A stretch of 27,026 nucleotides of DNA, taken from UHGV virus genome UHGV-0327176; one strand, given 5' to 3'. The position numbers were made by a program, and so were the translations under genes. Shown here one piece after another: positions 101 to 23,358 of the stretch. Source of the stretch: a virus. The notes beneath the pieces were generated by a model that saw only the letters and a program-made list of their open reading frames with translations, was not told the DNA's origin and did not search any database. Position 1 is the first letter of the stretch. Each line of letters starts with the position of its first letter.

Positions 101-267
101 TTGACCAAAATCGAAGTTACGAACAAGGAAGTGTCGAGCGAGCTTTAACGTGCGCTAACTGCGGTCAGAAGCTGCATGTGCTGGAAGTTCACGTGTGTGA
201 GCACTGCTGCGCAGAACTGATGAGCGATCCGAATAGCTCGATGCACGAGGAAGAAGACGATGGCTAA
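97..267 (+). CDS. ninF: NinF-like small protein with a 4-Cys motif (GTG start)
   Basis: Not in the ORF track (under 60 aa). Hand translation gives [56 protein letters not shown] then TAA. It sits between ninE and ninG as in lambda and overlaps the ninG ATG. Confidence 0.6.
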
Positions 268-871
268 ACCAGCGCGAAGACGATGTAAAAACGATGAATG
301 TCGGGAATGGTTTCACCCTGCATTCGCCAATCAGTGGTGGTGCTCTCCAGAGTGTGGAACCAAGATAGCTCTCGAACGACGAAGCAAAGAACGCGAAAAA
401 GCGGAAAAGGCAGCAGAGAAGAAACGACGACGAGAGGAGCAGAAACAGAAAGATAAACTTAAGATTCGAAAACTCGCCTTAAAGCCCCGAAGTTACTGGA
501 TTAAACAAGCCCAACAAGCCGTAAACGCCTTCATCAGAGAAAGAGACCGCGACTTACCATGTATCTCGTGCGGAACGCTCACGTCTGCTCAGTGGGATGC
601 CGGGCATTACCGGACAACTGCTGCGGCACCTCAACTCCGATTTGATGAACGCAATATTCACAAGCAATGCGTGGTGTGCAACCAGCACAAAAGCGGAAAT
701 CTCGTTCCGTATCGCGTCGAACTGATTAGCCGCATCGGGCAGGAAGCAGTAGACGAAATCGAATCAAACCATAACCGCCATCGCTGGACTATCGAAGAGT
801 GCAAGGCGATCAAGGCAGAGTACCAACAGAAACTCAAAGACCTGCGAAATAGCAGAAGTGAGGCCGCATGA
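260..871 (+). CDS. ninG: NinG (Rap) recombination-associated endonuclease
   Basis: 203 aa ORF. The sequence, with two Cys clusters (CKNDEC...CSPEC and CISCG...CVVCN), matches the lambda NinG protein as I remember it. Its stop overlaps the next gene's start (ATGA). Confidence 0.9.
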
Positions 872-1074
872 CGTTCTCAGTAAAAACCATTCCAGACATG
901 CTCGTTGAAGCATACGGAAACCAGACAGAAGTAGCACGCAGACTGAAATGTAGTCGCGGTACGGTCAGAAAATACGTTGATGATAAAGACGGGAAAATGC
1001 ACGCCATAGTCAACGACGTTCTCATGGTTCATCGCGGATGGAGTGAAAGAGATGCGCTATTACGAAAAAATTGA
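868..1074 (+). CDS. ninH: NinH small DNA-binding protein
   Basis: 68 aa [40 protein letters not shown]..., recalled as near-identical to lambda NinH, with a helix-turn-helix-like segment. Confidence 0.85.
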
Positions 1075-1717
1075 TGGCAGCAAATACCGAAATATTTGGG
1101 TAGTTGGCGATCTGCACGGATGCTACACGAACCTGATGAAAAAACTGGAGACGATAGGATTCGACACCAAAAAAGACCTGCTTATCTCGGTTGGCGATTT
1201 GGTCGATCGCGGTACAGAGAACGTTGAATGCCTGGAATTAATCACATTCCCCTGGTTCAGAGCTGTACGTGGAAACCATGAGCAAATGATGATTGATGGC
1301 TTATCAGAGCGTGGAAACGTCAATCACTGGCTGCTTAATGGCGGTGGCTGGTTCTTTAATCTCGACTACGACAAAGAAATTCTGGCTAAAGCTCTTGCCC
1401 ATAAAGCAGATGAACTTCCGTTAATCATCGAACTGGTGAGCAAAGATAAAAAATATGTCATCTGCCACGCCGATTATCCTTGTGACGAATACGAATTTGG
1501 AAAGCCAGTTGATCATCAGCAGGTAATCTGGAACCGCGAACGAATCAGCAACTCACAAGACGGGATCGTGAAAGAAATTAAAGGCGCGGACACGTTCATC
1601 TTTGGTCATACGCCAGCAGTGAAACCACTCAAGTTTGCCAACCAGATGTATATAGATACCGGCGCAGTGTTCTGCGGAAACCTCACATTGATTCAGGTAC
1701 AGGGAGAAGGCGCATGA
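1052..1717 (+). CDS. ninI: NinI Ser/Thr protein phosphatase (lambda PPase type)
   Basis: Metallophosphatase motifs GDLHG, GDLVDRG and GNHE are present. The sequence from [23 protein letters not shown] matches lambda phosphatase (221 aa). I chose the ATG at 1052; the ORF track starts at a GTG at 1043. Confidence 0.9.
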
Positions 1718-2337
1718 GACTCGAAAGCGTAGCTAAATTTCATTCGCCAAAAAGCCCGATGATGAGCGACTCACCACGGGCTACGGCTTCTGACTCTCTT
1801 TCCGGTACTGATGTGATGGCTGCTATGGGGATGGCGCAATCACAAGCCGGATTCGGAATGGCTGCATTCTGTGGTAAGCACGAACTCAGCCAGAACGACA
1901 AACAAAAGGCTATCAACTATCTGATGCAATTTGCACACAAGGTATCGGGGAAATACCGTGGTGTGGCAAAGCTCGAAGGAAATACTAAGGCAAAGGTACT
2001 GCAAGTGCTCGCAACATTCGCTTATGCGGATTATTGCCGTAGTGCCGCGACGCCGGGCGCAAGATGCAGAGATTGCCACGGTACAGGTCGGGCGGTTGAT
2101 ATAGCAAAAACAGAGCAGTGGGGGAGAGTTGTTGAGAAAGAGTGCGGAAGATGTAAAGGCGTCGGTTATTCAAGGATGCCTGCAAGCGCAGCATATCGCG
2201 CTGTGACGATGCTAATCCCAAATCTTACCCAACCCACCTGGTCACGCACTGTTAAGCCGCTGTATGACGCTCTGGTGGTGCAATGCCACAAAGAAGAGTC
2301 AATCGCAGACAACATTTTGAATGCGGTCACACGTTAG
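1714..2337 (+). CDS. Q: Late-gene antiterminator Q
   Basis: 207 aa [34 protein letters not shown]..., recalled as essentially lambda Q, including the zinc-binding CRDCHGTGR...CGRCKG region. Followed by a pR'-like promoter. Confidence 0.95.
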
Positions 2338-2379
2338 CAGCATGATTGCCACGGATGGCAACATATTAACGGCATGATA

Positions 2380-2408
2380 TTGACTTTTTGAATAAAGTTG
2401 GGTAAATT
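2380..2408 (+). promoter_or_regulatory. Late promoter pR' (-35 TTGACT, 17-bp spacer, -10 TAAATT) with adjacent qut region
   Basis: TTGACT at 2380-2385 and TAAATT at 2403-2408, immediately downstream of Q. The flanking sequence agrees with my memory of lambda pR'. Confidence 0.6.
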
Positions 2409-2548
2409 TGATCCAACGATGGGTTAATTCGCTCGTTGTGGTAGTGAGATGAAAAGAGGCGGCTCTTACTACCGATTCCGCCTAGTTGGTCAGTTCGACG
2501 TATCGTCTGGAACTCCAACCATCGCAGGCTGAGAGGTCTGCAAAATGC

Positions 2549-2609
2549 AATCCCGAAACAGTTCGCAGGTAATAGTTAGAGCCTGCACAACGGTTTCGGG
2601 ATTTTTTAT
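2549..2609 (+). terminator. tR'-like intrinsic terminator (end of the short pR' leader / 6S RNA)
   Basis: Inverted repeat aatcccgaaac (2549-2559) and gtttcgggatt (2593-2603) followed by a T-run to about 2607. Position relative to pR' is as in lambda. Confidence 0.5.
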
Positions 2610-2611
2610 TT

Positions 2612-2686
2612 GGGTCAGTCGTATAAAGGTAATTACGGAAGGCTGTTAACCTTCTTATCGTGGTTCGAGTCCACGCTGTCCCGCCA
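2612..2686 (+). tRNA. tRNA, predicted anticodon GTT (Asn)
   Basis: Hand-folded cloverleaf: acceptor gggtcag/ctgtccc (6 of 7 bp), perfect anticodon stem gaagg/ccttc, loop ctgttaa with U33 and anticodon GTT, perfect T-stem cgtgg/ccacg, T-loop ttcgagt, encoded 3' CCA. The D-stem is weak (3 bp). Confidence 0.7.
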
Positions 2687-2691
2687 AACAT

Positions 2692-2767
2692 GCTGGTTTA
2701 GCTCCAATGGTAGAGCAGTCGCCTTGTAAGCGAATGGGTAGCGGTTCAAGTCCGTTAACCAGCACCA
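2692..2767 (+). tRNA. tRNA, predicted anticodon TGT (Thr)
   Basis: Hand-folded cloverleaf: perfect 7-bp acceptor gctggtt/aaccagc, D-stem gctc/gagc, D-loop with GG, anticodon loop cttgtaa (anticodon TGT), T-stem agcgg/ccgtt, T-loop ttcaagt, discriminator A, encoded CCA. Confidence 0.8.
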
Positions 2768-2854
2768 TAACTGAGCCGTAGCCACTGGCTATCCTGGATT
2801 CATCAGTGATAGTTACGCTGCGGCCTTCTACACATGATCTTCGTGAAAGCGGGT

Positions 2855-2889
2855 GGCAGGAGGTCGCGCTAACAACCTCCTGCCGTTTT
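2855..2889 (+). terminator. Candidate intrinsic terminator downstream of the tRNAs
   Basis: Perfect 10-bp stem ggcaggaggt (2855-2864) / acctcctgcc (2875-2884) with a 10-nt loop, followed by gtttt. Confidence 0.4.
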
Positions 2890-3009
2890 GCCCGTGCATA
2901 TCGGTCACGAACAAATCTGATTGCTAAACACAGTAGCCTGGATTTGTTCTATCAGTAATCGACCTTATTCCTAATTAAATAGAGCAAATCCCCTTATTGG
3001 GGCTAAGAC

Positions 3010-3333
3010 ATGAAGATGCCAGAAAAACATGACCTGTTAGCCGCCATTCTCGCGGCAAAGGAACAAGGCATCGGGGCAATCCTTGCGTTTGCAATGGCGT
3101 ACCTTCGCGGCAGATATAATGGCGGTGCGTTTACAAAAACAGTAATCGACGCAACGATGTGCGCCATTATCGCCTGGTTCATTCGTGACCTTCTCGACTT
3201 CGCCGGACTAAGTAGCAATCTCGCTTATATAACGAGCGTGTTCATCGGCTACATCGGTACTGACTCGATTGGTTCGCTTATCAAACGCTTCGCTGCTAAA
3301 AAAGCCGGAGTAGAAGATGGTGGAAATCAATAA
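3010..3333 (+). CDS. S: Holin S (class I, dual-start S107/S105)
   Basis: 107 aa ORF beginning MKMPEKHD (Met1-Lys2-Met3 dual start), with three hydrophobic segments. Recalled as near-identical to lambda S. The upstream sequence ...caaatccccttattgggg... also matches lambda. Confidence 0.95.
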
Positions 3334-3793
3334 TCAACGTAAGGCGTTCCTCGATATGCTGGCGTGGTCAGAGGGAACTGATAACGGACGTCAGAAAACC
3401 AGAAATCATGGTTATGACGTCATTGTAGGAGGAGAGCTATTCACTGATTACTCCGATCACCCTCGCAAACTTGTCGCGCTAAACCCCAAACTCAAATCAA
3501 CAGCCGCCGGACGTTACCAGCTTCTTTCACGTTGGTGGGATGCCTACCGTAAGCAGCTTGGCCTGAAAGACTTCTCCCCCAAAAGCCAGGACGCTGTGGC
3601 ACTGCAACAGATTAAAGAGCGTGGCGCTTTACCAATGATTGATCGCGGTGATATTCGTCAGGCAATTGACCGTTGCAGCAATATCTGGGCTTCACTTCCG
3701 GGCGCTGGTTATGGTCAGTTCGAGCATAAGGCTGACAGCCTGATTGCAAAATTCAAAGAGGCTGGCGGAACGGTCAGAGAGATTGAGGTATGA
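3317..3793 (+). CDS. R: Endolysin R (lytic transglycosylase)
   Basis: 158 aa [42 protein letters not shown]..., recalled as lambda R. It overlaps the end of S as in lambda. Confidence 0.95.
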
Positions 3794-4227
3794 GCAGAGT
3801 AACCGCGATTATCTCCGCTCTGGTTATTTGCATCATCGTCTGCCTGTCATGGGCTGTTAATCATTACCGTGATAACGCCATCGCCTATAAAGAACAGCGC
3901 GATAAAGCCACGTCCATCATCGCTGACATGCAGAAGCGTCAACATGATGTAGCAGAACTCGACGCCAGATACACAAAGGAGCTTGCTGATGCTAACGCGA
4001 CTATCGAAAGTCTTCGTGCTGATGTTTCTGCTGGTCGTAAGCGCCTGCAAGTCGCCGCCACCTGTGCAAAGTCAACGACCGGAGCCAGCAGCATGGGCGA
4101 TGGAGAAAGCCCAGGACTTACAGCAGATGCTGAACTCAATTATTACCGTCTCCGAAGTGGAATCGACAGGATAACCGCGCAGGTTAACTACCTGCAGGAG
4201 TACATCAGGACTCAGTGCCTGAAATAA
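3790..4227 (+). CDS. Rz: Spanin inner-membrane subunit Rz (i-spanin)
   Basis: 145 aa ORF with an N-terminal transmembrane segment ([17 protein letters not shown]) and a coiled-coil periplasmic region. Lambda-Rz-like N-terminus, directly downstream of R. Confidence 0.85.
3983..4174 (+). CDS. Rz1: Spanin outer-membrane lipoprotein Rz1 (o-spanin), embedded in Rz in the +1 frame
   Basis: 63 aa ORF wholly inside Rz in another frame, with a signal peptide and lipobox-like LVVSAC followed by a proline-rich segment ([12 protein letters not shown]). This is the classic embedded Rz/Rz1 arrangement. Confidence 0.7.
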
Positions 4228-4259
4228 TTTTTTTGCAAATCACAAAGTCCATTTAATGA

Positions 4260-4284
4260 GCCTCGCGAAAAGCGGGGCTTTTTT
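4260..4284 (+). terminator. Intrinsic terminator after the lysis cassette
   Basis: Stem gcctcgc / gcggggc (7 bp including one G-U pair), loop gaaaa, then TTTTTT at 4279-4284. Confidence 0.55.
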
Positions 4285-4435
4285 ATGTCCTCAGTAAACC
4301 GCGCATTCTCGTGCGCATATCAACCAAGAGCTTTTCGGGATATGAGACAGAGACAGGACGGTGGCTTACATCGTGCCGCTCTTGGGCTGTCCATGTCTGC
4401 GAGAACTGGCTCATATCACCAAAAAGGTAAATACG

Positions 4436-5164
4436 ATGTCCAATATCATCCCGATTGATTTCGAAGGCCATCCCATGCGTTTTTCTGACGATGGCTGGTT
4501 TGACGCGACTGCGGCAGCTGACAAGTTCAACAAGGAGCCGGCTCAGTGGCTTAGGCTTCCTGAGACTGTCCGTTACATCGAGGCGTTAAAGAGTAGATAT
4601 GGGAATATCACATATGTAAAAACCAGCCGCGCTCGCAAAGACCGTGGCGGCGGAACATGGCTTCACCCAAAACTGGCGGTCAGATTTGCTCGATGGCTTT
4701 CTGTAGATTTTGAGATCTGGTGTGATGAGCAAATTGACGCAATCATTCAGGGTTCCGTTCATCATATCGACGATGAAAGAATAAAGGCTATTTTCCTTCT
4801 GGATAAATCTCAGCCATGGGAAAAGAGGTTTAGCGATCCGTTTTATTCTGCGATGTTCAAAATGTCAGGGCTGCCCCGTCATCGACCAGGTCGTCGCCCC
4901 GCACTATTTGGGATGATCAGTGCCAAGTGGGTATATGGCCAGGTATTACCACCAGAAGTATATGCAGAGGTTAAAAGACGGCTGGCTGCGGGAGACAAAA
5001 TCCATCAGCACCTTAAACCTGACGCGCTGACATTGGTTGAGCGACAGATCATTGCCGTTACCAGCATTGCCAATGGGTGCTCTGATTATCGTGATTTCGA
5101 AGCGCGTTGCATGTCGGCATTCCCGGTGAAAGGGCAGATGAAATTGCTCTATGCGGCGGCCTGA
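4436..5164 (+). CDS. KilA-N domain protein with a C-terminal domain I recall as P63C-like (accessory gene)
   Basis: The N-terminal region MSNIIPIDFEGHPMRFSDDGWFDATAAADKFNKEPAQWLRLPE...HPKLAVRFARWLSVDFEIWCDEQIDAI resembles KilA-N (APSES-type DNA-binding) domains. Start chosen at the ATG at 4436 with AAAGG 8 nt upstream; the ORF track extends to a GTG at 4361. Confidence 0.65.
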   Translation: MSNIIPIDFEGHPMRFSDDGWFDATAAADKFNKEPAQWLRLPETVRYIEALKSRYGNITYVKTSRARKDRGGGTWLHPKLAVRFARWLSVDFEIWCDEQIDAIIQGSVHHIDDERIKAIFLLDKSQPWEKRFSDPFYSAMFKMSGLPRHRPGRRPALFGMISAKWVYGQVLPPEVYAEVKRRLAAGDKIHQHLKPDALTLVERQIIAVTSIANGCSDYRDFEARCMSAFPVKGQMKLLYAAA

Positions 5165-15522: not shown

Positions 15523-16683
15523 ATGACGCAGGGCTTACCTGTATCCAACGTTGTAAACGTTGATGTGATCATCTCGCCGAAAGCGGCTACTGGTCGTAAC
15601 TTCGGCGCATTGCTAATCCTTGGCTCTTCCACTGTCATTCCGGTGACAGAACGTACTCGCCTATATGCTTCCATTGAGGACATTGGCGAAGACTTCGGTG
15701 TCGACAGCCCGGAATATAAAGCAGCGCAGGTTTTCTTCAGCCAGTCACCGAAGCCGACACAGGTTTATGTTGGTCGCTGGGCGAAGACGCTGAGTTCTTC
15801 CGAGAGTGGAGATACTGAAACTATCGTGCAAGCCGTTAATGCCTGCCTGCAATATACCAACTGGTATGGGCTGGTTGTCGCTGATGATGTTGTCGCTGGT
15901 GGCGATGTGCTTGATGCTGATGACGTGATTGAGGTCGCCAAACTTATTGAAGCGTCCAGCCTTAGCCGTATCTTTGGTGTGACCTCTGCCGACGCCGAGA
16001 TTATCAGCACGACTTCGACGACCGATGTTGCGTCGAAATTAAAGGCTGGCAAGTATGCCCGTACCTTTATTCAGTATTCCACCAGCAGCCCTTACGCAGC
16101 GGTTTCTGCTTTCGGTCGTGCGTTTACTGTCAATTTCAACGGCAGCAATACCACCATTACCCTGAAGTTCAAACAGGAACCAAGCGTAACCTACGAAACG
16201 TTGACGGTAGGCCAGGCGGCTGCGGTGGATACGAAGAATGCGAACGTGTTCGTGTACTACGCCAACGACACGGCGATCCTGCAACAGGGTGTCATGGCGA
16301 ACGGTGACTTCTTCGACGAGCGCCACGGGCTCGACTGGTTGCAGAACTACGTTCAGACCAACCTCTATAACCTGCTTTACACCAGCACCACCAAAATTCC
16401 GCAGACTGATGCCGGTGTTACCCGTCTGCTTTCCAACGTTGAAAAGTCCATGGATCAGTCCGTCACGAACGGTCTGGTTGCTGCTGGCGTGTGGAATGGT
16501 GGCCCTATCGGACAGCTGAATTCCGGCGATACGCTGACCAAAGGCTATTACGTGTATGCGCAACCGCTGTCCGAACAGGCGCAGGCCGACCGCGAAGCGC
16601 GCAAAGCACCGTTAATCCAGGTGGCCTGTAAGCTGGCTGGCGCAGTTCATTATGCCGATGTGCAGATCAACGTGGTTCGCTAA
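15523..16683 (+). CDS. Tail sheath protein (recalled as DUF3383-type)
   Basis: 386 aa ORF followed by a tube-sized gene, a chaperone and the tape measure. The N-terminus [30 protein letters not shown] resembles DUF3383 sheath proteins as I remember them. Confidence 0.65.
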
Positions 16684-16693
16684 GGAGCGATAA

Positions 16694-17134
16694 ATGGCAA
16701 CTTATTCTTTTCTCGATGTAACCGCGTCGCTCACCGGGCCGACCGGCGTTATCGATCTTGGTCAGGGTTCTGCGAACTCTGAGGAAGGTATCACCCAGAC
16801 CATGGGCGGCAACAAAAACACCATGACCATCGGTGCCGATGGCGAGGTGATGCACAGCCTGCACGCCGATAAGTCAGGCACCATTACGGTGACGCTACTC
16901 AAAACCTCCCCGGTGAATAAAAAGCTGTCTCTGGCGTATAACGCGCAAAGCCAGTCCTCTGCCACCTGGGGCAATAACGTGATCGTCATTCGCAACACGG
17001 CATCGGGTGATATTTCTACTGCGCGTTCGTGTGCATTCCAGAAACAGCCTGATTTCAATAACGCTAAAGAGGGCGGAACCGTCGCCTGGGTATTCGACTG
17101 CGGCAAGATTGACCAGCTTCTCGGGGAGTTTTAA
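16694..17134 (+). CDS. Tail tube protein (recalled as DUF3277-type)
   Basis: 146 aa ORF immediately after the sheath gene. Size and position fit a contractile-tail tube. Confidence 0.6.
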   Translation: MATYSFLDVTASLTGPTGVIDLGQGSANSEEGITQTMGGNKNTMTIGADGEVMHSLHADKSGTITVTLLKTSPVNKKLSLAYNAQSQSSATWGNNVIVIRNTASGDISTARSCAFQKQPDFNNAKEGGTVAWVFDCGKIDQLLGEF

Positions 17135-17137
17135 CGC

Positions 17138-17563
17138 ATGGAATTCGAAATTAAAGGCGTGAAATATCGCACCGCAAAGCTCAGCGTTTTCGAACAGCTG
17201 AAGGTGTCCCGCAAGCTGTTGCCGGTTCTGGCCGGGATGGTTTCGGACTTCCGGAGCGTTCAGGAGAAGATCAGCAGCAAAGACACCGAAGGCGCGATGG
17301 CTACCATCCTGCCAAAGATTGCCAATGCTGTGTCCGATCTGAGTGATGGCGACGTGGACGCTATCCTGTTCCCCTGTCTTTCCGTTGTTTCACGCGAGCA
17401 CATGAAAGGCTGGGTGCCGGTCTGCCAGCATGGCGAAATGGCGTTTGACGATATCGACCTGCTGACCATGCTGCAACTGGTGGCGCGGGTGGTCGCCGAC
17501 TCTCTGGGAAATTTTTTGCAAGGACTCCCTACCAGCGAGACGCCCACCCCGCCAGCGGAATAA
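17138..17563 (+). CDS. Tail assembly chaperone (short, G-like product)
   Basis: 141 aa ORF between the tube and tape measure genes. It contains a slippery heptamer near its 3' end (see next feature). Confidence 0.6.
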   Translation: MEFEIKGVKYRTAKLSVFEQLKVSRKLLPVLAGMVSDFRSVQEKISSKDTEGAMATILPKIANAVSDLSDGDVDAILFPCLSVVSREHMKGWVPVCQHGEMAFDDIDLLTMLQLVARVVADSLGNFLQGLPTSETPTPPAE

Positions 17564-17751
17564 CCTTCAATAGCCTGCCGGGCGGTGAAGATTTTATTCT
17601 TCGTCCGGCGCTTGCCTTCCATATTGACCAGAAAGACCTTAACAGCGGTGCGGTAGATCTTTGCCGCATCGCGCTTCTCAATGACTACCTCGACATGCGC
17701 GAGGATAACGACGCCCGGGTAGATAAATGGAGAGCGGCCAATGAGCGGTAA
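17138..17751 (+). CDS. Tail assembly chaperone, predicted -1 frameshift fusion (GT-like product)
   Basis: Slippery heptamer A_AAT_TTT at 17509-17515 in the zero frame (codons gga|aat|ttt, followed by a TTTTTT run). The -1 frame is open for 78 codons (17515-17748) and stops at TAA 17749-17751, overlapping the tape measure ATG at 17741. Hand-translated with no internal stops. Confidence 0.55.
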
Positions 17752-19753
17752 CGCAGATACGATTAAAGATTTCCTTGTTTCGCTGGGATTCGATATCGAT
17801 CAGGCTGGCGCTAATAAGTTTGAAGCCGTGCTGAAAGGTGTTACCGCGAACGTTCTGAAGGTCGGCGCGGTGGTGGAAGGCGCAGCGCTGAGCATTGTCG
17901 GATTTACCACCCAGATCGCGAATGGTCTGGATAAAATTTACTGGGCATCCCAGCGGACGGGGGCCAGCGTCCAGGGCATCAAAGCGCTGGGCTATGCCGC
18001 ATCGCAAACCGGTGCCAGCGCCGAGTCGGCTATGTCCTCCCTCGAAGGGCTGGCGGGGTTCATGCGTAGCAATCCGGGGGCGGAAGGCTTCCTGAACCGC
18101 CTGGGTGTCCAGACCCGTGATGCCAGCGGAAAGATGCGTGATACTGCGGCCATCTTTACTGGCGTTGGGCAAAAGCTCAACAACATGCCGTATTACCGCG
18201 CGAAGCAATACGCGCAGATGCTTGGCATCGATGAAAACACGCTGATGGCGATGCGGCGCGGCATGAATGGCTTTACCGCCGATTACCAGTCGATGCTGCA
18301 AAAGACAAGGTTCAACGCTGATAAAGCGGCTGTTCAGTCCAACAAATTCATGACGTCCATGCGCGGGCTTACGTCGCTGTTCGGCATCATGCGGGACAAG
18401 ATCGGCTCAAACCTCGCTGGTGGCCTGGCTGGTTCGCTGGACAGCCTGCGGCGGCGCATCCTCGACAATTTCCCGAAGATTGAAGAGACGCTTACCAGAG
18501 TTATTAACGGCGTGATCTGGCTTGCGAACGCATTCACGAGAATGGCGTGGCGGCTGATACAGGGCGCTGGCTCTGTCATCGACTGGTGGAAGCGTCTTGA
18601 CGATGGCAGTAAAAATCTGCTGAAAATATTCGGTGCTCTACTTGTCGCATGGCGTCTGCTTAATTCTGCGTTCCTGAAATCCCCGATTGGAATTATCACC
18701 ACGCTGATTCTGGCGATCGGATTACTCTATGACGATTACCAGACGTGGAAAGAGGGCGGAAAAAGCCTGATTGACTGGAGCAAGTGGGAACCAGCAATAG
18801 AAAAGGCGAAAAAGGCAATTATCTGGCTGCGAGATAAGCTGTTGGAGCTAAAAGATTCTGTCGGTGGGTGGCAGAACTCACTGGAAATTTTGGCTACCTT
18901 CATTGCAGGGGTATGGTTAAGCAAAATAACCTCTGCATTTGCTAAGTTAGCCGGAATACCTATGCCGCCATGGCTGAAGCTGTGGGCTATTTATGCCGGG
19001 TATCTGGTGGACGACAGGCATAATATTAAAGAAAGCGCTAAATCATCATGGGACTACACCAAAGGAAACATCGGAGATGCGCTCCGCTGGATGGGGTTTA
19101 ATACCGATTTTGGCCGCAATCCCAATACCGTGTATGGCGCGAATATTCAGTCAGATATTCCAGGCGCTGAACCGGAGCAATACGCCCAGTCAGTGAAGCG
19201 CCCACAAGCCACAGCCCAGGGTAAGGTATTGCTCGACTGGATGGGGCCAATGTTCAATAAACTGGAGTCGCTTTATCAGCTGCCAGCTGGCCTGTTGAAA
19301 AGCGTGGCGATCACCGAGTCGGGTGGTAACCAGTTCGCCATATCCGGCGCAGGCGCGAAAGGACTGTTTCAGTTTATGGATGGCACGGCGCGCGACATGG
19401 GCCTGCGTGGGAATGATGTATTCGACCCGGAAAAGTCAGCTCAGGCAGCCGCTAAGTACCTCAGCCAGCTGTTGCGGCAGAACGGCGGAGACCTTAGCAA
19501 AGCACTGGCATCATATAACTGGGGGATCGGGAATGTTAAGCGTTATGGAATGGGGCTAATGCCGCAGGAAACGCGCAATTACATTCCGAAAGTAATGAGC
19601 AATATGCCCACCAGCGCCCCGGTGATTCAGCAGGAAACGAACATTAACATCCACGGCGTTTCCGATCCTCGCGAAGCTGCCCGTTTGACTGTTGACCGTC
19701 AAAAGGGCGTGAATTCACAGTTAACCCAGCAACTCCCCGCAGGACCGAGATAA
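17741..19753 (+). CDS. Tape measure protein with a C-terminal lytic transglycosylase (SLT) motif
   Basis: 670 aa ORF after the chaperone, with hydrophobic segments in the middle (IFGALLVAWRLL, IITTLILAIGLLY). The segment ITESGGNQFAISGAGAKGLFQFMDGTARDMGL matches the catalytic-Glu-Ser lytic transglycosylase motif. Confidence 0.75.
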   Translation: MSGNADTIKDFLVSLGFDIDQAGANKFEAVLKGVTANVLKVGAVVEGAALSIVGFTTQIANGLDKIYWASQRTGASVQGIKALGYAASQTGASAESAMSSLEGLAGFMRSNPGAEGFLNRLGVQTRDASGKMRDTAAIFTGVGQKLNNMPYYRAKQYAQMLGIDENTLMAMRRGMNGFTADYQSMLQKTRFNADKAAVQSNKFMTSMRGLTSLFGIMRDKIGSNLAGGLAGSLDSLRRRILDNFPKIEETLTRVINGVIWLANAFTRMAWRLIQGAGSVIDWWKRLDDGSKNLLKIFGALLVAWRLLNSAFLKSPIGIITTLILAIGLLYDDYQTWKEGGKSLIDWSKWEPAIEKAKKAIIWLRDKLLELKDSVGGWQNSLEILATFIAGVWLSKITSAFAKLAGIPMPPWLKLWAIYAGYLVDDRHNIKESAKSSWDYTKGNIGDALRWMGFNTDFGRNPNTVYGANIQSDIPGAEPEQYAQSVKRPQATAQGKVLLDWMGPMFNKLESLYQLPAGLLKSVAITESGGNQFAISGAGAKGLFQFMDGTARDMGLRGNDVFDPEKSAQAAAKYLSQLLRQNGGDLSKALASYNWGIGNVKRYGMGLMPQETRNYIPKVMSNMPTSAPVIQQETNINIHGVSDPREAARLTVDRQKGVNSQLTQQLPAGPR

Positions 19754-20355
19754 TGGATATTTTATCAGCGATTTTTCGCCAGCAATCCCGGCGAATTGGC
19801 CTGCTGATCCCCAGCGTGGTCGTCTCCGAAAAGCATTCTGATGCGCTCGAAATTACTGAGCACCCGGTGGAGAAGCCAACAACGAATAGCGCTTCGGGCT
19901 TCATCGCCGATCATGCGTATAAGCGCCCCAGCGAAGTCACAATGGAATGCGGCTTCGCTGGTGGCGGTTCGTTGCTGGACTTCATTGATACATCTTCAAT
20001 CGGCCTCAGCGCCGGACTAAGCCCGAAAGAGACCTATCAGCAACTGCTGGATCTCCAGTCCTCTCGGGTGCCGTTCGATGTGATGACCGGAAAGCGGGTG
20101 TACAGCAATATGCTGGTGCGAGCCATCGAGGTGACAACGGACAAAACCAGCGAAAACGTGCTGAACTGCACGCTTACCCTGCGTGAAGTGATCATGTCGC
20201 AAACGCAGAGCGTTAGTGTTGCTGATAAATCAGATATGCAGGATGGCGTCAGCACATCGGCGGTGCAAAATTCCGGGACGAAATCCACTACACAGCCAAA
20301 CGAATCCTTGCTGAGCCAGCTTGGCGGAAGCGTTACATCAGCATTCGGGGGATGA
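19753..20355 (+). CDS. Hypothetical tail/baseplate protein
   Basis: 200 aa ORF whose ATG overlaps the tape measure stop. Called by position between tape measure and hub. Confidence 0.45.
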   Translation: MDILSAIFRQQSRRIGLLIPSVVVSEKHSDALEITEHPVEKPTTNSASGFIADHAYKRPSEVTMECGFAGGGSLLDFIDTSSIGLSAGLSPKETYQQLLDLQSSRVPFDVMTGKRVYSNMLVRAIEVTTDKTSENVLNCTLTLREVIMSQTQSVSVADKSDMQDGVSTSAVQNSGTKSTTQPNESLLSQLGGSVTSAFGG

Positions 20356-20664: not shown

Positions 20665-21729
20665 ATGTCTCTTAACTGGATGCGCCATTTTGAGCTGCAA
20701 CTGTTGGACCAGAACGGGCAGGGCGTTTCCCTGTCTGACTTTAAGGTCACGTTCCAGATCGAGTGGGCAGACACACGCTGGCCGCGCGTGGCGAACGTGA
20801 AAATTTACAACCTTTCGACCGATACCACGAACAAGATACTGGGGCAGGAGTTTGCCAAAATTCGCATCATTGCCGGGTATGACGGTATAGCGCCGGATGT
20901 TGATGCGAGCCAGGTCGGCGTCGCCCGAGAGATTTCACCAGACCAGATAGGGCAGGTGAACGGTCAGAACTACGGCCTGATTTTTGACGGTGATATTCGC
21001 TTTACCGTAACCGGGAAGGACAACATTACCGATTCCTGGGTGTTGATTCAGGCTATTGGAGATCATGAAGCGTTCCTCTACGCGACTACCATCACTACGC
21101 TTGCCGCTGGCTATACCGTTGCGGATCTGCACCGGGCGACGATGCAGGATTTCAACGTGTTCGGCGTGACACAGGGCATTACCGGCGATTTTCCTGATAC
21201 CGTGTTTCCTCGTGGCCGCGCGATTTACTCATCCACTCGTAACGTGATGGATAATATTGCAGCGCAGTGCAAAGCGACATGGCAGCTGGTGGATGGTCAG
21301 GTCCAGATGGTGCCGGAGGATAAATATATTCACGAAGCCATTGTGTTGAATGCCAATACTGGCCTGATTGGTATGCCGCAACAGACGATGGGCGGCGGCG
21401 TAAACGTGCGGTGCCTGATAAACCCAAACATCCGCATTAATGGTCTTATCCAGCTCGATCAGGCTTCGGTGTACCGCGCGTCGCTCGGTAATAGCGAAAT
21501 CGCACAGTCGCCCGGGCGTATCACCGAAACTGAAGAGAATGGCAACCGTGTGCTGACCGGTACGACGTCACAGGCTGCCAGCATTGCGACGGATGGCGTT
21601 TATATCGTCAAAGCTATCGACTATACTGGCGACACCAGAGGTCAGGCGTGGTACATGGATTTGATGTGCTTTGCGCGTGGCAGTCGTGAATTATATAGTC
21701 AGTCGACGCTCCAAAAAGTACAGGTGTGA
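20665..21729 (+). CDS. Putative baseplate hub protein (P2 gpD / Mu P-like position)
   Basis: 354 aa ORF upstream of the spike-like gene in a P2/Mu-like baseplate gene order. Family inferred from order and size only. Confidence 0.5.
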   Translation: MSLNWMRHFELQLLDQNGQGVSLSDFKVTFQIEWADTRWPRVANVKIYNLSTDTTNKILGQEFAKIRIIAGYDGIAPDVDASQVGVAREISPDQIGQVNGQNYGLIFDGDIRFTVTGKDNITDSWVLIQAIGDHEAFLYATTITTLAAGYTVADLHRATMQDFNVFGVTQGITGDFPDTVFPRGRAIYSSTRNVMDNIAAQCKATWQLVDGQVQMVPEDKYIHEAIVLNANTGLIGMPQQTMGGGVNVRCLINPNIRINGLIQLDQASVYRASLGNSEIAQSPGRITETEENGNRVLTGTTSQAASIATDGVYIVKAIDYTGDTRGQAWYMDLMCFARGSRELYSQSTLQKVQV

Positions 21730-21730
21730 T

Positions 21731-22081
21731 ATGACAAAAATTAGGAATGTTATCTGCGGAGCCGTTCTTTCGTTGGTCGGAGCTTCAACTGCAATGGCTG
21801 ATACCCAATGCGGGCCATATCGCCTCACCGCAGGTAATGATGGTTTTATGCATATTAATGGTGTAAAGCCAGAAAACCAGAAAATGACCTTTCTGAAAGC
21901 CAAGGAAGATTATCAAAATCTCAAGATGGAATGGACGGTTGCAACTAATCAACCCGGCCGCTGGGTTGGGCTTGAGTACATCAAGCGCAACGGCAAAGCC
22001 ATTCTCAACGCACAGTGGCTGCAAGCCAGCATGGATTCGCCGCGTCAGTATGCAACATACGACTGCCGAAAAGTAAAATAG
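21731..22081 (+). CDS. Moron: secreted (periplasmic) protein with a Sec signal peptide, unknown function
   Basis: ATG at 21731, 1 nt after the hub stop, with AGGTG upstream. The N-terminus MTKIRNVICGAVLSLVGASTAMA/DTQCG is a typical signal peptide with an AxA cleavage site. Two Cys in the mature part. GC content is lower than the flanking tail genes. Stop TAG at 22079-22081 runs into a GC hairpin. Confidence 0.6.
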   Translation: MTKIRNVICGAVLSLVGASTAMADTQCGPYRLTAGNDGFMHINGVKPENQKMTFLKAKEDYQNLKMEWTVATNQPGRWVGLEYIKRNGKAILNAQWLQASMDSPRQYATYDCRKVK

Positions 22082-22617: not shown

Positions 22618-23358
22618 ATGCCAATTCCAACTCAATCACAGATCGGGGGTGAGCAGCAGACCGCGCAGGCCATTGCCGATTCGGTGTCTACCCAGATGCG
22701 CGTAGCGATGCCCGGCATCATTCAGTCGTTCGATCCTGACACTGTTACCTGCACAGTAGAGGTAGCGCTTCGCGGTATTGTTGGCGATGGCTCCACCGAA
22801 TTAAAACCGCTGGTGGATGTGCCGGTTATCTTCCCGCGCGGCGGCGGTTGCACGCTGACCTTTCCGGTAAAAGAAGGCGACGAGTGCCTGCTGATCTTTG
22901 CCGACCGTTGCATCGATTTCTGGTGGCAGAGCGGCGGCGTTCAGGAGACCGTCGATCCGCGACAGCATGACTTATCTGATGCGTTCGCCATCGTTGGCCC
23001 GCAGTCGCAAGCACAGAAAATCAGCGGTATCAGTACCAGCGCCGCGCAGCTGCGAACCGATGATGGTGCGGCGTTCGTAGAGGTTGCCGCAGGACATAAC
23101 ATCACCGTTCAAACACCGGGCCAGCTCACGGCTACGGCTGAAGGTGGAACGACAATCACATCCCCGACTATCACGCTGAACGGCAACGTAACGATTAATG
23201 GCAATCTGTCTCAGGGAATGGGCGAAAGTGGCGGTACTGCGACGATGCTTGGGCCGGTGACGGTGACTAACGATGTGAAGGCTGGAGGAAAGAGCCTCAT
23301 CCAGCATACCCATGGCGGTGTGCAGAATGGCAGCGGGAATACTACCGCGCCTAATTAA
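22618..23358 (+). CDS. Baseplate spike protein (gpV / Mu gp45-like)
   Basis: 246 aa ORF with a Gly/Thr-rich C-terminal region typical of spike beta-helix proteins, and HTHGG near the C-terminus reminiscent of the His-containing apex motif. Lies upstream of W-, J- and I-like genes. Confidence 0.65.
   Translation: MPIPTQSQIGGEQQTAQAIADSVSTQMRVAMPGIIQSFDPDTVTCTVEVALRGIVGDGSTELKPLVDVPVIFPRGGGCTLTFPVKEGDECLLIFADRCIDFWWQSGGVQETVDPRQHDLSDAFAIVGPQSQAQKISGISTSAAQLRTDDGAAFVEVAAGHNITVQTPGQLTATAEGGTTITSPTITLNGNVTINGNLSQGMGESGGTATMLGPVTVTNDVKAGGKSLIQHTHGGVQNGSGNTTAPN

Follow-up and report, generated by a model that had tools for sequence, protein, structure and literature searches.

Between the gene for the tail assembly chaperone and that for the tape measure protein, the virus genome UHGV-0327176 (27,026 nucleotides, hereafter the window, to which all coordinates refer) has an otherwise gene-free stretch of 177 bp, from 17564 to 17740. 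What does this gap encode, and how could it be translated? The original prediction was that the chaperone gene carries a programmed -1 ribosomal frameshift, such that the gap would hold the second half of a longer chaperone. We find that this is very probably so: from its sequence and from the comparison with related loci, we predict in the tail chaperone gene a programmed -1 ribosomal frameshift of the lambda G/GT and P2 E/E+E' type.

The following mechanism is proposed. The majority of the ribosomes would translate 17138-17563 into the 141-aa chaperone G, i.e., the unshifted product. A minority would step back one base on A-AAT-TTT-TTG, at T_TTT_TTG, at A_AAT_TTT, or at both, and these shifted ribosomes would read the -1 frame up to the TAA at 17749-17751, giving a predicted G-T fusion of 204 aa. 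The fusion would consist of the G domain, a disordered linker of roughly 20 residues and the helical DUF6889 domain. By analogy with gpG and gpGT of lambda, the G part of both products would coat the tape measure protein, and the T part would recruit the tube protein. No downstream RNA structure would take part, as in P2, and a conserved stretch 10-16 nt upstream, complementary to the 3' end of the 16S rRNA, may stimulate the slip, as in dnaX. The G/GT frameshift is a conserved feature of long-tailed phages (PMC5009743).

The tail locus and the predicted product of the -1 frame

The chaperone ORF is embedded in a set of tail genes, of which the tube, chaperone and tape measure genes are on the + strand. 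The tail sheath gene (15523-16683; DUF3383, phrog_205) precedes the tail tube gene (16694-17134; PF11681 KPP10_Orf10 / Phage_Tube_PhiTE at 5.8e-60), which is the upstream neighbour of the chaperone ORF (17138-17563). On the other side of the gap lies the tape measure gene (17741-19753; phrog_2276 at 1e-221), whose product has a C-terminal SLT lytic transglycosylase domain (PF01464 SLT at 3.4e-25), followed by genes for a Dit-like protein, a plug and a hub. Portal, capsid, NinG and antiterminator Q genes are found upstream of the tail genes. Together with the tail gene set, these identify the window as a temperate prophage with a contractile tail, and the DUF3383 sheath and the PhiTE-type tube are those of an enterobacterial myovirus. 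The placement of the chaperone pair between the tube and the tape measure genes, in the gene order of the G/GT type, had been part of the original prediction and is borne out by these family matches. The same order (sheath, tube, chaperone, gap, tape measure) occurs in the phages vB_EcoM-689R2, GZ7 and ST405-OXA48phi1.2, and the Citrobacter phage Omnitron is 97.7% identical to the window over this region. Among 5426 complete E. coli genomes, 119 (~2%) contain a match to the region, which covers at least 80% of it in 39 of them.

The zero-frame product is a G-type tail assembly chaperone according to the profile searches, in agreement with what had been proposed: it matches PF21822 (Phage_TAC_15) over residues 6-128 at E 3.6e-32, its score of 112 bits lying above the Pfam gathering threshold of 22, and phrog_1688 at 2e-53. 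The gap that follows is filled by an open -1 frame. This frame is open from 17449 to 17748, i.e., over 100 codons, 78 of which lie past the slip site, and its stop (TAA 17749-17751) falls 11 nt inside the tape measure ORF, which begins with the ATG at 17741. The coordinates thus agree with the predicted reading of 78 codons up to a stop that overlaps the tape measure start. The extension itself, or T part (17515-17751, 78 codons and TAA), lacks a start codon of its own; the earliest ATG, GTG or TTG in the -1 ORF of the window is the ATG at 17695, 60 codons in, which leaves 18 codons.

The extension encodes a recognisable domain. Over residues 165-200 of the fusion, it matches DUF6889 (PF21829) at E 1e-10, again with a score (41.6 bits) above the Pfam gathering threshold (23.9), and phrog_4364 at 2e-17. 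The gene-free 177 bp, which the original prediction had attributed to the -1 frame, are accounted for in this way. Pfam and PHROG scans gave only PF21822, PF21829, phrog_1688, phrog_4364 and phrog_1613; no other chaperone family matched in Pfam at E<=0.01, and the scan of the fusion against NCBIfam gave no family match.

In an AlphaFold model of the fusion (mean pLDDT 71), the G domain occupies residues 1-128, the final helix of which stops at the slip site. A linker at residues 126-148 is predicted to be disordered (pLDDT <50), and the T domain is modelled as three helices. The linker is encoded in the dual-coding overlap (17519-17563), where the zero frame gives the tail of G, QGLPTSETPTPPAE, and the -1 frame the start of the linker, ARTPYQRDAHPASG. 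When BFVD was searched with Foldseek, the G part of the model hit predicted tail assembly chaperones of viruses (1.6e-8). Among solved structures, phmmer against the PDB sequences returned nothing meaningful, and Foldseek of the model against the PDB returned nothing at E below 1.

About a dozen assemblies carry alleles with 7 T at the slip site that encode the exact predicted fusion (…GNFFAYTPY…) as one ORF, e.g., P0004, L150 and E. coli ISC7 (CDL28562.1). These single ORFs would display the form of the fused protein, whether the alleles are genuine or homopolymer errors. P0001, a protein of 160 aa with both Pfam domains, was set aside as a natural fusion; it looks like an assembly with several indels.

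Conservation of the extension

We compared 68 loci, i.e., 3 annotated phages and 65 loci from bacterial assemblies (one genome per species) that cover many enterobacterial genera. Their chaperones are 46-100% identical to that of the window. These bacterial-genome loci replaced a set of 80 loci from viral contigs, which were 95-100% identical to the window and of no use for studying conservation. Two peptide patterns served to retrieve the loci. One of them, DSLGNFL, favours loci that keep these residues, but it leaves their codons unbiased.

The original prediction would have been refuted had the -1 extension not been conserved in homologous gene clusters. The extension is kept in 67 of the 68 loci, with 77-83 codons, and ends at or just inside the start of the tape measure gene; in L110, the one locus that departs from this, the frame is broken a second time within T. 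Between the stop of G and the stop of T, the 67 loci contain no stop at all in the -1 frame; the two remaining frames have 287 and 343. The part that encodes only T has a dN/dS of ~0.23 (NG86), and the mean pairwise nucleotide differences at the three codon positions of the -1 frame are 0.31, 0.23 and 0.54. The extension aligns over its full length, with the motifs FARTPR, LP.GEDY..RP, G.VDL.DIAL.ND and DN..RI..WR, and the zero-frame stop stands 12-17 codons past the slip in every locus. These patterns indicate that the -1 extension encodes a genuine protein domain, conserved in divergent relatives as in systems of the G/GT type. We found no conserved start codon in the -1 ORF of the 67 loci. 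The first ATG, GTG or TTG is placed anywhere from 8 to 60 codons past the slip, and independent initiation therefore cannot yield the conserved domain.

The predicted slip site and its possible stimulators

At the slip site, the zero frame reads GGA (17507-17509), AAT (17510-17512), TTT (17513-17515) and TTG (17516-17518). The heptamer that had been singled out at first, A_AAT_TTT, is indeed there, at 17509-17515 and in the X_XXY_YYZ phase of the chaperone frame, with every position as predicted. Two further in-phase heptamers had gone unnoticed, G_GGA_AAT (17506-17512) and T_TTT_TTG (17512-17518), so that the slippery run G GGA AAT TTT TTG (17506-17518) comprises three that overlap. Across the 33 ORFs of the window, in-phase heptamers number 20 among 7950 codon positions, and three of them fall in this single run of 13 nt. 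From a random position within a gene, the -1 frame stays open over a median of 10 codons and reaches at least 78 in 4.4% of cases, some of which coincide with the frame of the next gene. The slip run and the long open -1 frame exceed the chance expectation.

The codons of the run are nearly invariant. GGA is found in 66, AAT in 65 and TTT in all of the 67 distinct loci; the loci being mutually related, such counts overstate the number of independent observations, which is mitigated by the scan along the gene described below and by the variable synonymous sites on the flank. Elsewhere in these genes, GGA, AAT and TTT account for 10%, 40% and 51% of the codons in their respective synonymous sets, and the two codons that precede GGA vary freely (six codons at the Ser position and four at the Leu position). 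The fourth codon of the run is TTG in 62 loci, TTA in 1, TTC in 2 and TTT in 2.

As a slip site, A_AAT_TTT fits 65 of the 67 loci. The other two keep only T_TTT_TTN, 3 nt downstream, with the T heptamer and the extension intact, and T_TTT_TTN is retained by all 67. One of the two (L113) reads GGT AGT TTT TTT; there, the shift would be confined to the T run, because a TAG in the -1 frame stands directly 5' of it. The other (L120) reads GGA AGT TTT TTG. Since both lack A_AAT_TTT, the universally conserved candidate for the slip heptamer is T_TTT_TTG (17512-17518). The overlapping A_AAT_TTT is a likely second slip site, or may act together with it. Ribosomes may use T_TTT_TTG, A_AAT_TTT, or both, and the products predicted for the two sites differ at one residue (GNF-F-ART vs GNF-L-ART). 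In E. coli, H_HH.U_UU.Y heptamers, including A_AAU_UUU, are among the most efficient (PMC4066793). The frameshift efficiency at T_TTT_TTG alone may be low, because U_UUG was weakly shifty in the E. coli tetramer assay of the same study (PMC4066793). The invariance of the rare GGA codon, otherwise unexplained, fits the use of A_AAT_TTT. As for G_GGA_AAT, we demoted it as a functional heptamer, its first base not being conserved (7 loci have CTC or CTT as the Leu codon before GGA).

A downstream stimulatory RNA structure, suggested as a check on the original prediction, was found by none of three approaches: single-sequence folds of 82 and 181 nt of the window gave z-scores of 0.20 and 0.12, RNAalifold predicted 0 pairs on 28 diverse loci, and the 67 loci, when folded, had z-scores with a median of 0.33 and no value below -2. 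Upstream of the slip site, the stretch GGGTGGTC (17487-17494) is a candidate Shine-Dalgarno-like stimulator. It is complementary to the 3' end of the 16S rRNA, GAUCACCUCCUUA, with which it can pair over 8 bp (-12.7 kcal/mol in the window). Over the 67 loci, the mean best anti-SD duplex has -10.9 kcal/mol, versus -6.9 for versions of the same peptides in which synonymous codons were randomised. When we scanned 26 positions along the gene, an excess appeared only at the two just upstream of the slip site (-3.9 and -3.0 kcal/mol), the remaining positions deviating from zero by no more than about 1.1 kcal/mol.

In most cases, the pairing stops 8 or 11 nt short of GGA, i.e., 10-13 nt before A_AAT_TTT, which is the spacing range known to stimulate frameshifting in dnaX. 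The frameshift signal of E. coli dnaX was reportedly described by Larsen et al. in 1994; it consists of A_AAA_AAG and a strong downstream hairpin, and the shift is about 50%. As predicted for the locus studied here, dnaX has a -1 shift on X_XXY_YYZ and an upstream element that can pair with the 3' end of the 16S rRNA, roughly 10-14 nt before the heptamer. It differs by its strong hairpin, whereas the folds described above gave no hairpin or pseudoknot of the dnaX type, and the candidate pairing here uses the GAUCACC part of the rRNA tail, unlike dnaX. In this set of phylogenetically related loci, these results are suggestive of an rRNA-pairing frameshift stimulator at GGGTGGTC.

A broader and rather doubtful possibility, which we put forward tentatively, is that a compound signal sets the ratio of G to G-T. 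Two to three overlapping in-phase heptamers would act with the conserved upstream element that pairs with 16S GAUCACC, without any downstream structure, and DUF6889 would be a T domain made solely by frameshifting. If this were true, the locus would combine the frameshift of a tail chaperone with an rRNA-pairing stimulator like that of dnaX, and the Pfam family DUF6889 would be established as a 'T domain' that arises in no other way than by frameshifting.

Alternative explanations and known systems

The same G-T fusion could be made if the RNA polymerase, rather than the ribosome, stuttered on T6 and added an extra U to some of the mRNAs. Nothing but the run of 6-7 T is conserved in all 67 loci, the genomic 7-T variants that encode the fusion in frame mean that it is prone to indels, and the resulting protein would be identical, so sequence alone does not separate this process from ribosomal slippage on T6. 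However, for bacterial polymerases to slip productively, A or T runs of at least about 8-9 bases are needed, and the run falls short of this length, being 6 T long in 65 loci and 7 T long in the other 2. The near invariance of GGA (66/67) and AAT (65/67) suits a ribosomal and not a polymerase mechanism, and the upstream anti-SD complementarity makes sense for a ribosome, not for a polymerase. Furthermore, the identical TTTTTTG of P2 has been described as a translational frameshift (PMC3091744). We regard transcriptional slippage as improbable.

Slippage of any kind would be superfluous if DUF6889 were an independent small gene, translated from an internal and possibly non-canonical start, with G and T never fused. 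We give this very little chance. The conserved residues (FARTPR…LP.GEDY..RP) and the purifying selection reach the slip site, upstream of all candidate starts, no start codon is conserved, and the first one in the window leaves only 18 aa. The annotations that speak for such a gene, namely a 27-aa 'DUF6889 family protein' of PGAP, a 58-aa CDS in the gap of GZ7 and DUF6889 ORFs of 42-75 aa in public sets, are inconsistent in length, and the RefSeq CDS begins at ATC. Work cited in PMC12846349, which suggests a mechanism other than frameshifting in T4-like phages, also speaks for such a gene. Scarcely credible, finally, is a decayed gene, i.e., a former single ORF that a 1-nt deletion broke in a defective prophage, or that a sequencing error in the homopolymer split. 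The same frame relation recurs in 67 of the 68 loci, from many genera, and in the plaque-forming or induced phages Omnitron, GZ7 and vB_EcoM-689R2. Both frames are under purifying selection, and the zero-frame stop follows the slip at a similar place in every locus (12-17 codons). In favour of a decayed gene are the position of the break within a homopolymer, the in-frame 7-T versions in about a dozen assemblies and the broken T frame of L110. A -1 ribosomal frameshift is the interpretation of this tail chaperone locus that the comparisons support, and they point to a well-supported, ordinary and unannotated case of the conserved tail-chaperone frameshift.

The predicted -1 frameshift can be compared with that of lambda. 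The lambda G/GT frameshift and its conservation among long-tailed phages were reportedly described by Levin in 1993 and by Xu, Hendrix and Duda in 2004 (both cited in PMC5009743). The slippery sequence of lambda is G_GGA_AAG, and it differs from the A_AAT_TTT and/or T_TTT_TTG predicted here. The protein families differ as well, since the window encodes PF21822 and DUF6889, belongs to a contractile-tailed virus and has a candidate upstream Shine-Dalgarno-like element. The lambda gpG/gpGT genes and those of long-tailed dsDNA phages share with this locus a pair of ORFs that overlap and are placed between the gene for the major tail (or tube) protein and that for the tape measure protein (PMC5009743). 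In both, the second ORF is in the -1 frame without a start of its own, the T stop abuts the tape measure start, and a downstream structure is not needed.

From its sequence, the site appears to work like that of P2, but outside the P2 E protein family. Homology to gpE or gpE+E' of P2 was not found, i.e., the Pfam and PHROG scans contained no P2 E family. The P2 E / E+E' frameshift is said to have been described by Christie et al. in 2002 (cited in PMC5009743 and PMC3091744). In P2, the ribosomes slip at TTTTTTG, and no downstream structure is involved (PMC3091744; PMC5009743). The T_TTT_TTG of P2 is identical to that of the window and in the same phase, it has no downstream hairpin, and both viruses are myoviruses; in P2 too, a short chaperone and a longer -1 product are encoded between the tube and tape measure genes (PMC3091744). 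The P2 products have 91 and 142 aa, compared with the 141 and 204 aa predicted here, and the overlapping A_AAT_TTT and the upstream anti-SD complementarity are additionally conserved at the locus studied here.

A similar situation was described in the paper on phage Adele for Pakpunavirus / Vandenendeviridae and Andersonviridae, in which the region between the chaperone and tape measure genes is likewise annotated as hypothetical or intergenic (PMC12846349). The -1 frame is open in all relatives, a poly-T motif is conserved at the 3' end of TAC-N, and the proposal of a frameshift is, as here, one of comparative genomics only (PMC12846349). These are lytic Pseudomonas and enterobacterial myoviruses, and their motif, GTTTTT, is different (PMC12846349). 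The temperate enterobacterial family with PF21822 and DUF6889 lies outside the scope of PMC12846349.

A search of the literature returned no papers on DUF6889, PF21829, PF21822 or Phage_TAC_15, and nothing relevant on DUF3383 or DUF3277 in connection with frameshifting. What this analysis adds is modest: T_TTT_TTG as the putative universal heptamer, DUF6889 as the likely T domain, and a candidate upstream stimulator that pairs with the rRNA. The general picture known from lambda and P2 is unchanged. The loci with both heptamers, those with T_TTT_TTN only and those with in-frame 7-T fusions form a natural series for studying the use of the heptamers and the tuning of a low-level shift by rRNA pairing.

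The main value of the result lies in annotation. This prophage is present in ~2% of complete E. coli genomes (119/5426) and in many other Enterobacterales, with its tail chaperone mis-annotated. If DUF6889 is read as the T domain that frameshifting adds to the PF21822 chaperone, a domain of unknown function would gain a role and many records would be corrected. The records of the phages vB_EcoM-689R2, GZ7 and ST405-OXA48phi1.2 contain no frameshift annotation. Records give the chaperone gene followed either by an empty gap or by an arbitrary 'DUF6889' ORF of 27-75 aa. In RefSeq/PGAP this is the 27-aa protein that starts at ATC, and in public protein sets the ORFs have inconsistent starts, several of them being misnamed 'lytic transglycosylase'.

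Variation in the slip run and the T frame

The slip run of the tail assembly chaperone gene (GGA AAT TTT TTG, 17507-17518), at which some ribosomes would probably pass from the G part (17138-17563) into the -1 frame extension or T part (17515-17751, DUF6889 domain), has six T in the window. At one related locus (L150 1896-1910, Logan SRR23924998) the T run has seven bases instead of six, as it likewise does in E. coli ISC7 (CDL28562.1), and with seven bases the G and T parts are joined in a single ORF of 213 aa. The protein falls in a cluster of 16 members; UniRef contains ten E. coli sequences of it. The seven-T sequences may be genuine alleles that encode only the G-T product, or else homopolymer sequencing errors.

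The -1 extension is broken in only one of the 68 related loci compared, that of Enterobacter sp. R1(2018) (L110, about 1870-2200), where it stops after 38 codons and the remaining T domain is carried on in a different frame. Prophage decay or an assembly indel could account for this break.

Annotation of the T part and antisense ORFs

RefSeq records part of the extension in E. coli CX12 (L149 2031-2114, corresponding to window 17668-17751) as a 27-aa 'DUF6889 family protein' with the start codon ATC (WP_371831623.1). Such DUF6889 fragments are named 'lytic transglycosylase' in other records, a label apparently taken over from the adjoining tape measure gene (17741-19753, plus strand).

Two long minus-strand ORFs lie opposite the chaperone gene (120 aa, 17260-17622) and the tape measure gene (207 aa, 17678-18301). 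Both are probably non-coding shadow ORFs, because the plus-strand -1 frame between 17564 and 17740 has the codon-position pattern expected for coding sequence.

Downstream genes and genome mosaicism

Another in-phase heptamer, A_AAG_GGC (19702-19708), lies 15 codons ahead of the tape measure stop, within that gene, and the -1 frame continuing from it directly enters the Dit-like gene (19753-20355), which has an ATG of its own at 19753. This continuity is probably an ordinary overlap of adjacent genes.

Between the baseplate hub (20665-21729) and spike (22618-23358) genes there is a small ORF (21671-22081), whose true start is likely ATG 21731. It matched no family in an NCBIfam scan, and its N-terminus (MTKIRNVICGAVLSLVGASTAMA…) resembles a signal peptide; the ORF may be a moron or serve in lysogenic conversion.

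The genome is mosaic: the genes at its early-late junction (260-5164) are lambdoid (NinG, a Ser/Thr phosphatase-like metallophosphoesterase, antiterminator Q and KilA-N), whereas the virion module (6850-27026) is of the DUF3383-sheath myovirus type, with baseplate parts resembling those of E217 and Pam3.
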